Source: Acidobacteriota bacterium (GTDB lineage Bacteria; Acidobacteriota; Terriglobia; UBA7540). From it: 64,000 bases of DNA. This document shows, piece after piece, positions 2,601-64,000 of the stretch (the stretch's first letter is position 1; every line of letters begins with the position of its first letter). Below the pieces are notes generated by a model. The model was not told where the DNA came from, ran no database searches, and was given only the letters and a program-made list of their open reading frames with translations. The stretch covers positions 21,172-85,171 of the forward strand of contig PLSX01000216.1 in assembly GCA_003165315.1 (NCBI GenBank), written 5' to 3'. The translations under genes and the position numbers were made by a program.

Positions 2601-2862
2601 GCTAAGTGTCTTTATTTTCATAACTATCGTGGCCTAAAAATTAAGTTATTTGTTTTCATCAACATCGTGGGATATGTCAAACTGTCACTTCGCTCTTCCT
2701 TTGTTTTCATCAACATCGTGGGATATCCCCTTATTTTTTATTCCCCTTTTTCCCGGCATCGAATCCCGGGCTTCGCTGTAAGCCATTTATAATCAGCAAT
2801 ATAAAATTTCGACGCATTTTTCGAGTTTCTTGTAAGTCTCTGTATTTTCATACACATCGTGG
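2601..2862 (+). repeat. AT-rich intergenic locus with 4 direct copies of the motif (GCTAA..)..TTTTC-N7-(A/T)ATCGTGG
   Basis: Copies end in ATCGTGG at 2632, 2670, 2721 and 2862, all on the + strand. Two copies are identical over 27 nt (TTTGTTTTCATCAACATCGTGGGATAT). The same motif recurs at 61581-62100. Confidence 0.8.
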
Positions 2863-3255
2863 CCTCCCCAGGGTATTTTCGGGGGGAAATCTGCCATCCT
2901 GGTCCTCAAAAGAGCTCCCCTGATTTACCTGCGCTCACGCCATAGCCCAGCGGCAAAAGTCCCCCTCCTGATTCAAGGACAGGCGGCGCGTGAGCGCGGG
3001 GGGGGTTGCCGGCGCCGCCCCGCGGCGGTCCTGCCTCTCCCCTCTATTGTAGCCTATTATTCGAAATTGTCAAGGGAAATGCAGAGCCTAGCGCATGGGT
3101 TTGCAGCCCGCGGGGCGCGGCGGCAGGACACTCCGCGTGCCGTAAGAAGCCGTGAAAAACCCAGGGACAGGCAAAAGCAGGCAGGCCAGCCGCATCATCC
3201 GCCACCAGTTAGAGCGGGCCAAAGCCGAATCGGCCAGTAAGCTGATTGCTGCAAA

Positions 3256-60185: not shown

Positions 60186-61307
60186 TCATTTGAACCTTGT
60201 CGGTCTGTAGACTTCAATGGGCCTGGAAGTAAAACCTTTCACAATTAGGTCCGCAATGATTTCCGCTGTTACCGGCGCAAGAAGGATGCCATTGCGGAAG
60301 TGGCCGGTGGCGAAAGTCAGGTTCTCAATCTCTCCATAGCCTAGGATTGGAAGGTGATCCACGGTGTCGGGCCGCAGGCCTGCCCAGGCGCGCAGGAAGA
60401 GGGCTTTTCCCACCATCGGCGCAATGCGGACCGCCCCTTCCATTAGCGAAAGCAATCCGTTGGCCGTCACAGTCTTTTCAAAGCCAGTGTGCTCTGAAGT
60501 GGCGCCCACCAACAGGCGGCGCCCCGGGCGCGGCACCAGGTAGTGCATTCCGGAGCGCACTACGAAGGGCAACTCGCGCTCAACCTCGAACTCCATCATT
60601 TGCCCGCAGCAGGGAGCGACGGGTACCTTGATCCCAAGCCCTTCGGCGATTTTCCCCGACCAGCATCCTGCCGCCAGAACATATGTTTTTGCCGTATAGC
60701 GGGTGTCGTTTTCCTCCACAACGCTGTCAATGCGGTCGCCGGTCAGGTTGAACTTATGAACAGCGCACCCGGCTTCCAGCCGCACGCCCGCACGCTGACA
60801 GGCAATCAGTAAAGCTCGCATCAAGCGCTCATTATCAACCCAGTGATCTTCGGGAATAAACAGGCCGCCGCGGACATGGGGGGAAAGGTCTGCTCCGCGG
60901 CCCTGAATTTCGCCGGGCGTCAGCGGATCGAGCGAATATCCTTGCGCGGTCTGCACGCGCTGGATTTCCCCCAATTCCCGCTCGATCTTTTCGTCAAGCG
61001 CCACCATCAGGGAGCCGTCGCTGCGATAGCCGGCGTGATGGCCACTGGACTCTTCGATTTCAGCCGCGAAACGCGGGTAAAGATTGCGGCTGGCGACGCA
61101 CAACTCTGAAAATGTACGGGGCTCCAGCATCTCCCCCAAAGGCGCCAGCATGCCCCCCGCGGCGCTACTAGCCTCGCCGCCCGGTTCGGCGCGGTCAAGA
61201 ACCGTTACCTTCATCCCCGCCTGCGCCAAGCGCCAGGCAATGGAGCAACCGATGATCCCCCCGCCGATAACCAGCACGTCGGCAGCGCGTGATGAATGCT
61301 CAGCCAT
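60186..61307 (-). CDS. FAD-dependent glycine/D-amino-acid oxidase, ThiO-like
   Basis: DVLVIGGGIIGCSIAWRLAQAGMKVTVLDR dinucleotide fold. ~370 aa from the Met at 61307, with DAO-family layout. The ThiO assignment is tentative because no other thi genes are adjacent. Confidence 0.65.
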   Translation of the reverse strand: MAEHSSRAADVLVIGGGIIGCSIAWRLAQAGMKVTVLDRAEPGGEASSAAGGMLAPLGEMLEPRTFSELCVASRNLYPRFAAEIEESSGHHAGYRSDGSLMVALDEKIERELGEIQRVQTAQGYSLDPLTPGEIQGRGADLSPHVRGGLFIPEDHWVDNERLMRALLIACQRAGVRLEAGCAVHKFNLTGDRIDSVVEENDTRYTAKTYVLAAGCWSGKIAEGLGIKVPVAPCCGQMMEFEVERELPFVVRSGMHYLVPRPGRRLLVGATSEHTGFEKTVTANGLLSLMEGAVRIAPMVGKALFLRAWAGLRPDTVDHLPILGYGEIENLTFATGHFRNGILLAPVTAEIIADLIVKGFTSRPIEVYRPTRFK

Positions 61308-61580
61308 ATTGAAACCAATCGTCAGTGAACGGCACGACGTCACTCCTGCCGCGACTGATTGCCTGCCATCAGCCACCTACCCAATCGACTCTTAACACTG
61401 CCCTTTTCCCAGTTTTTGCCAAGCGAGGCGAGGGGTCAAGGGGATTCTTCGGGTCTTTGGATTTGTGCTGTCTCCCGGCGTCGTTTCTGCTCCCGGCAAA
61501 GCGACTTTCATTGCCCTGGAATCCAGCATCAGGGCATCAGATTTCAGACTTGGCTGCTCGTCCCTTACAACTTGCATTTT

Positions 61581-62100
61581 CACTAACCACCTTTATTTTC
61601 ATCAACATCGTGGAAAGCGACTTGTAACTATCTTTGTTTTCATCAACATCGTGGAAGAGCAAAAGCGGACATTTTTTCTACATTTGTTTTCAGTGACTTA
61701 GGGATAATTTTTCATAATTTCCCCCCCTTTTTTTTTACCCTCCAGAATTCACAGGGAATTTAATAAATGTCTTATTTTTCAATAATATAGAAGTTTGAGG
61801 AATTTCTATCATTTTCGATTAAATCCTTTTTTTTCTTATATATCGTGGAAAGCAAACCCCGTTCCATCACTCCGATTCTCCGATCCCCCGCTAAGTTCCT
61901 GTATGCAAAGAGAATAGAGCCTCTGACTTATTGTCTGAAATTGCTAACCCCTTGTGTTTTCTTCTACATCGTGGAAAGGTGAGTCCAGGCATCCACTCCG
62001 ATTTTCCGTTTCCACGCTAACTCCTTGTATTCAAAGAGAATAATTGCTGTGACTTAAAGTCTGAAATCACTAACCCCTTGTGTTTTGTCGTACATCGTGG
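61581..62100 (+). repeat. AT-rich intergenic locus with 5 direct copies of the TTTTC-N7-ACATCGTGGRA motif, including two 126-nt tandem units
   Basis: Copies end in CGTGG at 61613, 61654, 61848, 61974 and 62100. The last three are spaced exactly 126 nt apart and the intervening units are clearly homologous. An AT-rich core with long T runs lies at 61660-61840. Confidence 0.85.
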
Positions 62101-62782
62101 GAAGGCGCGGAAATTCCCCCGGAAATTGGACCCAGGACGAGAGAGCCGGGACACAGCATCTTCCCTCGGAAAATAGGTTCTGGACGCCCCAGATAAAGTC
62201 CCCACTCACGGGTTTTCGCCCCCCTGATCCTGGCGCTGAAGTTCTGACCGGTCGACCCGGCAGGTTGGATTGCTGGGGCTTCGAGAAGAGGTGAGAATTG
62301 GGGAGGGACATAACGATACCCCACAGTAACACATGGTTATTATATCTAGAGATACTTCTCAAGTCAAGGAAAATCTACCAGATTCAGAGGCTACAAAAAG
62401 TCGCATCCGGGCGGCCATCCTGACGTCTTCGGGGCTGCTTTGGCGCAGGGGATGGCGCGCCGCCCCCTGGTTCCGCATTCACTTTGCGGAATTGCAGCAG
62501 GGGCGCCCCTCGTGAGCGCCCGGAAACGCCTGGATCGAATTCCGGCGGGAGGGGGCAGGCACGAGGCCTGCCCCTGCGCCTGCTTTCTTTCGCCGCGCCG
62601 CGGTTCGGTGGGCGCTTCAACCGGCGGGCATTATTGTATTTCTTGACAGAAAACTGAAAGCTGATGACTTCAGCGGTACGCCTGATTCATATCCGGGCAA
62701 GGGGAAAGACCCGCAAAGTAATTCGGCTCTGAGCGGAATGACTTTGCGCTACCTTTCTCCGTGCTAGCTCGCTCTTCGACCC

Positions 62783-64000
62783 TCACTTGATCGCGGAGGT
62801 TCCCTCCACGCGGACGGTGACAATCTGAAAGGGTTTGACGGAGAAGTGGAATCCGTGGGGCGAGGCCGTGAGCGCACTCTGGTTCCGTTCCAAAGCATCG
62901 GCCATTGTCGCCGCTTGCACATTCAGCAGCGGAGTCTCGGCGTTGACCTCCGCGGGTTTTCCCGCCAATTCCAGAAAGCGCAGAATCGTTCCCTTGCCAT
63001 CTTCCGCTGCCTTCCACGTCACCAGAGCGACATCGGGTTGATCCACTTTCAGGAAGCTCGCCTGCGCTGTATCCAGGGGCCGCGGTGAATTGATGGCTTT
63101 GTCCTGCGAAGTGATCTGGTCAACTTCCAGGGGAGACATCTCTTCGCGCCCGAGGCGGCTCAATTGTGCAGGCTCAAGATTGGCGCCACTTGTCAGGACG
63201 TAGCGGAAGGTGAAATCCCCACCCTGGCCCGCGGCATAATTGGTGAAGTAGTAATTGTTCATGACCTGGGAAAAGATAGTGCCATTGCGGCGGCCGAATT
63301 CACGCGGCCATGTACCGCGCACGATGTCTCCCAGGGTGATCAGCGATGCGTCCACAGGGATGATGGCCGCCGTCGCGCCGTCCTGGTCCGCCGCCACCCA
63401 ATGCTGCACGGAGAACCACTCTTTTCCCGCTCCCGGCAGTTGATCGTGGGCCGGATTCACGAAGCCATTCTGGATTTCATAGCGGAATTGCGGCTGATCC
63501 ATGGCCAGGGGAAAGGCAAAGTAGATACCTTCTTTGGAATAGACCTCCGTCTTGCGCACGTGGTTGATGAACTCAATCTTCTTTTGTCCCTTAAAGAGGA
63601 TGATTTCGGTTTCAATCTGCGGTGTGTTAACGCCCGAGCTTTCAAGGCGCGCCGCCATGCCGAAAGGCTCTTGGGTAAGGGACACCAGGCGCCCGCCGCC
63701 CGCATTGTGAATGGTGAGTTCAGGAATCGGCCAGTTGGCGCTGTATTCGAGCAGCCGATTGGGGCTCTGGTCACCTCCCGTGACGTAGAGATATTGGTCA
63801 AACTTGTAAGGGCTGCCGGTGTTCACCAGTTCCTTGCTCAGCTCCTTATCGAAAATGCTCTTCACTGCTCCACTCTCCGCATCCAAAACCACGCGGTAGA
63901 ATTGATTCTCCATGGTGCTGGCGGAAACCGGTTGGGGCGCGGGCGGCGCGTCGGGGATTTCCTTCAATGAATAAGCCTTGTAACCCACCGACGGCACGTC
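62783..64000 (-). CDS. glycoside hydrolase family 38 (alpha-mannosidase)-like protein, C-terminal part; gene runs off the right edge
   Basis: ...MENQFYRVVLDAESGAVKSIFDKELSKELVN... and the following beta-rich ~350 aa resemble the GH38 C-terminal domains. The reading frame is open to the window end. Confidence 0.6.
   Translation of the reverse strand, partial: DVPSVGYKAYSLKEIPDAPPAPQPVSASTMENQFYRVVLDAESGAVKSIFDKELSKELVNTGSPYKFDQYLYVTGGDQSPNRLLEYSANWPIPELTIHNAGGGRLVSLTQEPFGMAARLESSGVNTPQIETEIILFKGQKKIEFINHVRKTEVYSKEGIYFAFPLAMDQPQFRYEIQNGFVNPAHDQLPGAGKEWFSVQHWVAADQDGATAAIIPVDASLITLGDIVRGTWPREFGRRNGTIFSQVMNNYYFTNYAAGQGGDFTFRYVLTSGANLEPAQLSRLGREEMSPLEVDQITSQDKAINSPRPLDTAQASFLKVDQPDVALVTWKAAEDGKGTILRFLELAGKPAEVNAETPLLNVQAATMADALERNQSALTASPHGFHFSVKPFQIVTVRVEGTSAIK

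Follow-up and report, generated by a model that had tools for sequence, protein, structure and literature searches.

The window analyzed here is a 64,000-nucleotide stretch of contig PLSX01000216.1 from an Acidobacteriota bacterium of the class Terriglobia, and between a thiO-like gene and a GH38-like gene it contains five same-strand copies of a short motif. A first-pass annotation of the sequence had described these copies as lying around a strongly AT-rich core, and had considered that they might be iterons, promoter or processing modules of a small RNA family, or a binding-site array for a regulator. We find that the five motifs are boxes of a composite, non-coding element of ~0.8 kb (window positions ~61575-62375), and that this element is a member of a large modular family confined to Terriglobia. 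The element is probably best read on the minus strand, its working strand then being opposite to the one that the annotation had followed. Read in this direction it comprises, in order, a sigma-70 promoter, the relic of a small gene that we refer to as X, three 126-nt units that each end in a box, an A/T-rich stretch containing a G-run/A-run, and a head of three boxes.

Architecture of the element and its surroundings

The five plus-strand copies of the motif were borne out, with their CGTGG ends located at positions 61613, 61654, 61848, 61974 and 62100. The spacing within the motif had to be corrected, as a pattern with the annotated gap of seven nucleotides (N7) matches almost nothing and the distance separating TTTTC/G from ATCGTGG is 6 nt. 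The N6 pattern recovers all five copies together with two further ones at 2653 and 2704, and its 7 matches in the window compare with 0.11 expected in shuffled sequences. A search of the window's genome (labelled G000; 6.19 Mb in 285 contigs, 56% GC, 92% complete) returned 69 exact matches to the motif, as compared to 1 for a reversed control. The positions of the motif are non-random, and it is catalogued neither in Rfam nor in the literature that was searched: an Rfam covariance scan gave best scores of 14-25 bits against thresholds of 45-117, all of them to unrelated eukaryotic or archaeal families admitted by a permissive E-value, and full-text searches for the motif strings and for peptide strings yielded nothing relevant. 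The element is apparently undescribed, with no fitting entry in Rfam, Pfam or NCBIfam. Its boxes are linear motifs of ~30 nt that vary at 6 internal positions, and RNAalifold detected no consensus secondary structure in 44 aligned heads on either strand.

Coming from the minus-strand promoter, box M1 (TAAC..CTTTATTTTCATCAACATCGTGGAAAG; 61584-61617, plus strand) is reached after all the other boxes, and the part that is homologous in the related copies that we group as family A (see below) begins ~10 nt to its left. Box M2 (61625-61658, plus strand) is positioned 41 nt after M1 and is followed by the AT-rich core (61659-61818, plus strand). Conserved within this core is a stretch reading GACATTTTTTCTA; the core also includes a third head box in degenerate form (TTTGTTTTCAGTGAC), ~51 nt beyond M2, as well as a C-run/T-run (CCCCCCCTTTTTTTTT) and a half-box (TTATTTTTCAATAATATAG). 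The unusual composition of the region between copies 2 and 3 is real, as the GC content at 61700-61850 is 0.24-0.29 compared to ~0.56 for the genome. Box M3, which is the third annotated copy (61819-61852, plus strand), lies 194 nt after M2, and beyond it are two 126-nt units whose full boxes are copies 4 and 5 (61853-62104, plus strand). Within a unit, a variable segment of ~40 nt is followed by a half-box (CTAAC..TT.TAT..AAAGAGAATA), a GAC.T...GTC stretch and the full box; no conserved stems were seen by eye in the variable segments of 22 aligned units. Copies 3 to 5 fall within a 126-nt tandem repeat (1.9 copies, 81% identity), and family-A homology ends directly after copy 5.

The promoter of the element (TTGACT-17-TATAAT; 62339-62367, minus strand) is near-consensus for sigma-70, matching at 11 of 12 positions, and it points into the array from ~240 nt beyond box 5. 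In a consensus scan it was the sole strong promoter-like site of the locus, and the scan found no sigma-70-like -35/-10 pair at the five motif copies on the plus strand. Past the promoter, an open frame (MSLPNSHLFSKPQQSNLPGRP...; 62311-62054) that reads into box 5 starts with an ATG preceded by a Shine-Dalgarno-like GGGG. Judged by its homology to intact X, this frame is a decayed copy (MSLPNSHLFSKPQQSNLPGRPVRTSAPGSGGRKPV...; 62054-62311, minus strand) of that gene, which encodes a protein of ~110 residues (MSLRKSPTMTPARIEANRRNAQKSTGPRTARGK...). The first-pass annotation had seen no credible open reading frame (ORF) in the region, and this is nearly right, the decayed relic on the minus strand being the sole meaningful frame. 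A plus-strand ORF at 61845-61982 starts at the GTG of copy 3; it was rejected as coding because the equivalent GTG of copy 4 meets a stop immediately. Short ORFs across such loci are mostly artefacts.

The head ends ~270 nt before the start codon of the thiO-like gene (60186-61309, minus strand), which encodes a flavin adenine dinucleotide (FAD) oxidoreductase, is co-directional with the element's promoter and has its start facing box M1. It also ends ~130 nt before a conserved 40-nt block upstream of that gene (CCCCTTGACCCCTCGCCTCGCTTGGCAAAAACTGG; 61409-61448, minus strand), which is also found with thiO-like homologues in relatives. On the other flank, the GH38-like gene is encoded on the minus strand with its stop near 62783. 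Three sets of inverted repeats were seen in and around the locus. A perfect 12-nt pair, GATTTCAGACTT and AAGTCTGAAATC, is located at 61540-61551 and 62057-62068 with 505 nt between the arms, one arm just outside box 1 and the other within the last unit; the outer arm is in flanking DNA that does not align to other family-A loci, and the pairing may be due to chance. Just past the GH38-like stop, positions 62670-62780 contain a different repeat of ~100 nt with an 18-nt inverted repeat (CGCAAAGTAATTCGGCTC and GAGCGGAATGACTTTGCG), which has at least 25 copies on other contigs and may be a terminator-type element or one resembling repetitive extragenic palindromic (REP) sequences. Finally, GC-rich nested inverted repeats with 25-nt arms that are 76% complementary occur at 62440-62580 (and 62499-62756), where a 258-nt stretch is 80% identical to contig C221:29878-30148.

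The genome-wide family, its orientation and its leader genes

Family A comprises 13 loci, the one described above included, at which five boxes are spaced by 41/195/126/126 nt; all five boxes are present at 12 of the 13, and at the thirteenth the fifth is mutated. Family B comprises ~12 loci with four boxes spaced by 39/51/142 nt, and at a few further loci the spacing is 40/72/39 nt. Related layouts are found at ~35 loci beyond the 13 of family A, for a count of ~50 per genome. The window itself contains one family-B element (2601-3075, plus strand), whose four boxes (2601-2862) end at 2632, 2670, 2721 and 2862, with a spacing of 38/51/141 nt. This second element has a minus-strand TTGACA-16-TACAAT promoter at ~3040-3075 and is located upstream of a minus-strand gmhA-like gene (1738-2334).

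A profile of the upstream half of the box (TAAC..CTTTGTTTTCATnnACAT) identifies 328 sites in the window's genome, which can be classed by the five bases that come next (CGTGG at 103, CTTGG at 44, CGCCG at 43, CTCGG at 31, AATGG at 29 and TCCGG at 12). The class pentamer (CGTGG, CTTGG or AATGG) is common to all boxes of one locus, with the other variable positions differing among them, and this uniformity within a locus fits recognition by a specific partner. An alignment of family-A copies shows that it is mainly the boxes, along with a few stretches between them, that are conserved. The array copies are ~70-85% alike, none is nearly identical to another, and the differences are found mostly between boxes. 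Among the genomes of ~185,000 species, a stricter 24-nt motif (TTTG + TTTTCAT + NN + ACATCGTGGRA) occurs only in metagenome-assembled genomes of Terriglobia/Acidobacteriota. Within the genus the count of exact motifs ranges from 0 to 68, and diverged heads were listed for most of the 29 genus genomes searched.

The flanks of the arrays have no proteins in common, the only candidates being spurious ORFs across the repeats, and neither a terminal inverted repeat spanning the element nor a transposase was found. The family is many-copy, intergenic and modular, as are REP sequences, bacterial interspersed mosaic elements (BIME) and miniature inverted-repeat transposable elements (MITE) of the Correia or BOX type, but no hairpin of the palindromic kind typical of those repeats emerged as a consensus structure from the 44 aligned heads on either strand. 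BOX elements of Streptococcus pneumoniae, which are built of A, B(n) and C modules, and Correia elements of Neisseria (CREE/NEMIS) are many-copy, modular, non-coding intergenic repeats near gene starts, and Correia elements can carry promoters and change the expression of neighbouring genes. The element described here is like them in being many-copy, modular and intergenic, but it lacks terminal inverted repeats and a conserved hairpin, its copies are old and have diverged everywhere except in the boxes, and it is led by X, by a larger relative of X (XL, described below) or by a relic, and is oriented toward the downstream gene. An array of clustered regularly interspaced short palindromic repeats (CRISPR) was also considered and set aside, given a period of 126 nt, boxes that differ at 6 internal positions, a box number that is the same at 12 of 13 loci and the lack of conserved neighbouring genes.

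The promoter cassette recurs at other arrays, often with a GACAnnnTGTC palindrome over the -35 hexamer. By a strict regular expression, 29 of 49 arrays have a co-directional canonical promoter no more than 1.1 kb from their last box, as compared to a chance expectation estimated at ~0.05 per locus. Separately, a 3-mismatch search for TGTCTCTTGACAA with a -10-like TAnnnT 12-16 nt further on gave 116 matches genome-wide in G000. Many of these, though not all, are the conserved cassette (TGTCTCTTGACAA-N-TAGGCT/TATACT, often with the same palindrome over the -35), and it is followed by at least three kinds of cargo: gene X, a 'ATGAAGGCC...' frame and heptamer arrays. Tandem arrays of a related box, AAAAATGAAGGTGCATCCGGCGATATTCATGAAAACAAAGGAACG ('MKVHPAIFMKTKER'), occur with a 155-175-nt period on three contigs of the same genome (C244:25700-27000, C261:6300-7900 and C47:20300-21000), amounting to 43 copies that alternate with a CTCGGGTTATCCCCGCAAGGG class. 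The C244 and C261 arrays, both of which were checked, are led by the element's promoter cassette, and that of C261 is preceded by runs of the GGGACTC heptamer; these tandem arrays show no orientation bias toward neighbouring genes. Arrays in this genome that combine the promoter, the GGGACTC heptamer and boxes use the same box core.

The A- and B-type arrays have a marked orientation with respect to their neighbours. With the motif set to the plus strand, the first long ORF encountered past box 1 is encoded on the minus strand and has its start facing the array in 43 of 49 cases, and in those 43 the gene runs with the element's promoter. A binomial p of 2e-10 was computed on an earlier hand count of 44/47, and 43/49 likewise departs widely from an even split. 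The neighbouring gene on the promoter side may have either orientation, and arrays of the CGCCG/CTCGG type show no orientation bias (7 vs 5). The downstream genes are mutually unrelated, but many of them have core housekeeping functions. Judged by the N-terminal sequences that they encode, they include gyrA, glmS, glnA, cysS, purB, a class II aldolase gene (fba), nuoA and the gmhA-like gene, and also genes for an Mrp/ApbC-like protein, an ftcD-like protein and, at the present locus, the thiO-like protein.

Intact members of the family begin with X (~110 residues) or with XL (~366 residues), the latter being a relative of X of 350-366 residues that has the same N-terminus and is equally conserved. 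There are 17 copies or relics of X in the window's genome, and the gene is decayed at many loci; more than 500 homologues with 50-85% identity are present in Terriglobia metagenomes. Where X or XL is intact, its stop codon lies within the first box, and because X/XL homologues enter this box in three frames (with tails ...TKPECY, ...NEAGM and ...SRNVIEN), the box is an element at the level of nucleotides and not a peptide. Neither X nor XL had a match in Pfam, NCBIfam or PDB sequence searches, and an AlphaFold model of X, which is all-helical with a predicted local distance difference test (pLDDT) score of 74, had no Foldseek match in the PDB better than E = 4. In several families of Terriglobia the N-terminal motif of X, ANRRNAxKSTGPxTxxGK, heads many proteins of 200-700 residues, and one complete genome has as many as 26 copies of it; it appears to be an unnamed, widespread N-terminal domain.

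Conservation at gyrA and thiO

The age of the family and the constraint on its boxes can be gauged from two sets of comparisons. In G000 and at least nine other species of the genus, XL and then boxes are located directly upstream of gyrA, and on a separate metagenome contig XL is found between gyrB and gyrA, with boxes upstream of gyrA. In an alignment of the gyrA-upstream region from nine species, the mean column identity is 0.83-0.88 for the three full boxes and 0.87 for the gyrA proximal block, as compared to 0.61 for the remaining columns. Where the array is orthologous, as it is at gyrA, the boxes are under purifying selection. A head with the same 51/41 spacing is also present after another XL (54% identical) and before a sugar kinase gene on a separate metagenome contig. 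On metagenome contig L129 (1-6943), XL, a PIN-domain gene and two small ORFs lie between gyrB and gyrA; a mini-ORF of the box head ends there 4 nt after the gyrA start codon, an overlap that could allow translational coupling.

Homologues of the thiO-like gene (~50% protein identity) were checked in eight other species. Of these, six lack boxes within the ~1.5 kb of upstream DNA that was retrieved, in G003 a head faces the opposite, divergent gene, and the eighth was not covered upstream. Because most of the homologues show no upstream boxes, this copy of the array is probably not required for thiO. The 40-nt block at 61409-61448, upstream of which the element lies, is common to all eight and is probably the gene's own promoter or a regulatory site/operator; Rfam found no thiamine pyrophosphate (TPP) riboswitch at the block. 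No exact empty site could be aligned upstream of the homologues, as GH38 synteny is not kept and all of the species are different (coding DNA 76-90% identical). The gyrA and thiO comparisons together indicate that the family is old and its boxes are under purifying selection, and that single loci, the window's included, come and go.

Candidate functions of the boxes

We tentatively favour a reading in which the boxes are cis-acting sites for one sequence-specific trans factor that tunes the expression of the downstream gene. The binding-site array proposed in the first-pass annotation is, as far as sequence comparison can tell, compatible with all of the observations, which include unstructured boxes, a fixed orientation and purifying selection at an orthologous site. 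Recognition of the boxes would take place on DNA, upstream of the promoter of the host gene, or else on a nascent, purine-rich RNA led by the element's promoter, and binding of the factor would tune transcription into the downstream gene or its expression. The X/XL proteins are candidate partners of the boxes, as their genes precede such arrays in intact members of the family; loci with a decayed X, such as that of the window, might be served in trans by intact X copies. Between the boxes and the host gene lies a conserved proximal block that belongs to the gene itself, as seen for the thiO-like gene and gyrA.

Several known systems resemble parts of this arrangement. In the lambda N/nut and RfaH/ops (JUMPStart) systems, short conserved elements with a fixed orientation lie in a promoter-led leader upstream of operons, and lambda N is a small basic protein, encoded just upstream, that recognises nut. 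The arrays described here are likewise promoter-led (29/49) and face a gene start (43/49), but they have no boxB-like hairpin, their boxes are ~30 nt long and present in 3-8 copies, X and XL have no similarity to N, NusG or RfaH, and the host genes retain a proximal conserved block downstream of the boxes. CrcZ and CrcY of Pseudomonas, and CsrB and RsmZ, are strongly promoted, protein-titrating RNAs with repeated A-rich or GGA motifs. The present element shares with them a strong promoter, and its predicted minus-strand RNA would be purine-rich with GAAAACAAAGG boxes, but these boxes are not an exact fit to AAnAAnAA, there are ~50 loci as compared to 1-3, and we recognised no terminator within the array's conserved part. 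A sponge for CsrA of the Csr/Rsm type was rejected, as the 92%-complete genome yielded no CsrA match in a search with positive controls and the boxes have no conserved hairpins; Hfq is present. Upstream activator-site arrays with A-tract bends, of the Fis/UP type known from growth-rate-controlled promoters, are similar in that several sites and A-tracts lie 90-500 bp upstream of a housekeeping proximal block, whereas the sites here are long (~30 bp), directly repeated and nearly invariant, and their spacings (41, 51, 126 and 195) are not uniformly in helical phase.

A number of findings weigh against the boxes being sites of such a factor. Upstream boxes are missing from most of the thiO-like homologues, as described above, and searches of Pfam, NCBIfam and the PDB, together with Foldseek for X, revealed no recognisable DNA- or RNA-binding domain or fold in X or XL. 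The N-terminal domain of X occurs in 39 of 151 genomes sampled from the class, as compared to 5 of 151 for the box sequence, all five belonging to one family; with the domain so much more widespread, the pairing of X and box is not obligatory. In addition, the pentamer shared within a locus could stem from gene conversion, and the orientation bias could reflect selection against promoters that point the wrong way, not function. The main alternative, possible if somewhat unlikely, is a selfish or neutral dispersed repeat comparable to the BOX and Correia elements. With its promoter and defunct gene, such a modular element would have spread through intergenic DNA and would survive only at sites where the outward promoter is co-directional with the next gene; its boxes would have no function for the host, and the orientation bias would reflect tolerance. 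Such a repeat would account for the many copies and the exact counts of 0 to 68 across species of the genus, for the thiO-like homologues without boxes, for modules that occur in differing combinations, for the decay of X at many loci, and for the lack of orientation bias in CGCCG/CTCGG-type arrays. It is harder to reconcile with copies that are never nearly identical and differ chiefly between boxes, with the failure to find terminal inverted repeats or a transposase, with the exact spacing and number of boxes at 13 loci, and with an XL-box-gyrA order that is kept in at least nine species, where the boxes are as conserved as the gyrA proximal block.

The remaining explanations have less in their favour. 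The suggestion that each motif is a plus-strand promoter or small RNA module, which in its fullest form would have every box serve an unfamiliar sigma factor or polymerase and give rise to short antisense RNAs that run from GGAAAG to the hairpin/T-run of the core, is improbable. It draws on the ~30-nt, three-block form of the motif with G-starts after it, and on the hairpin and subsequent T-run that follow M2 in some family-A copies. However, the five copies lack a sigma-70-like hexamer pair and the strong promoter of the locus is on the minus strand, conservation is highest in what would have to be the spacer, other classes have unrelated pentamers in place of CGTGG, the CTTGG, AATGG and B classes do not retain the hairpin, and the plus-strand RNA would be C-rich and G-poor, and hence prone to Rho. 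The hairpin/T-run was also discounted as a plus-strand terminator, being present in only some CGTGG-class copies; in 34 of 44 copies the minus strand folds slightly better, which is probably an effect of composition. A loose likeness of TAAC...CGT to extracytoplasmic function (ECF) promoters was set aside, as the AAC-CGT distance is 21 nt and ECF promoters have a spacing of 16-17 nt. Very improbable is the idea that the boxes encode, or derive from, tiny minus-strand ORFs (M-K-x-x-P-T-M-L-L-K-T-K-E...) acting as upstream ORFs that couple translation to the downstream gene. Family-B and AATGG heads do have a well-spaced Shine-Dalgarno sequence and ATG that open a 30-40-codon ORF with an internal repeat, and in one relative the ORF ends 4 nt after the gyrA start codon, but family A, including the present locus, has no such ORF and does not conserve its 'MLMKTK' mini-ORFs. 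Moreover, the 'start' is ATA in several copies, the ATG is missing in 27% of boxes, unit boxes close the frame with TAG, open frames that follow a box have a median length of 21 codons, and X/XL enter the boxes in three different frames. The iteron reading of the first-pass annotation, in which the repeats beside a DNA-unwinding element would mark a plasmid, phage or chromosomal origin, took its cue from same-strand direct repeats that flank a core of 24-29% GC. Copy number and context suffice, in practice, to refute it: the five-box layout exists at 13 loci and related ones at ~35, and the ~50 loci per genome each lie beside a different housekeeping gene. In addition, the flanks share no rep or dnaA gene, there is no DnaA box at up to 1 mismatch within 61300-62400, the repeats are ~30 nt long, as compared to ~17-22 bp for initiator-binding repeats, and lie 41-195 nt apart, and no skew switch occurs at the locus.

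The reading that we favour, in which one trans factor acts at the boxes, could be extended to a Terriglobia-specific cis/trans system of X/XL and arrays that sets the expression of housekeeping operons and serves as a lineage-specific global switch between growth and dormancy, although we regard this wider proposal as doubtful and unlikely. A small protein whose gene leads a strongly promoted unit would then recognise the ~30-nt boxes that follow, on DNA or on nascent RNA, and its targets would be gyrA, glmS, glnA, nuo, cysS, purB, fba and others. What is new here is that the element is linked to X/XL, that its five-box layout is fixed, that the arrays obey an orientation rule and lie beside housekeeping genes, and that the boxes are under selection at gyrA.

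Terriglobia are among the most abundant bacteria of soil and peat, and to our knowledge almost nothing is known of how they control gene expression. In one genus of this class, dozens of core genes, among them those for DNA gyrase, glutamine synthetase, GlmS, NADH dehydrogenase and a tRNA synthetase, have the same module upstream, and this module is under purifying selection at gyrA and is linked with X/XL, a family of uncharacterised proteins that has hundreds of homologues. For annotation, it follows that such loci should not be called origins or small RNA genes. If the boxes are regulatory, they would offer a compact, testable entry to a global control circuit of an uncultured lineage; if they are selfish, they would represent a new type of promoter-carrying repeat that reshapes transcription beside essential genes.

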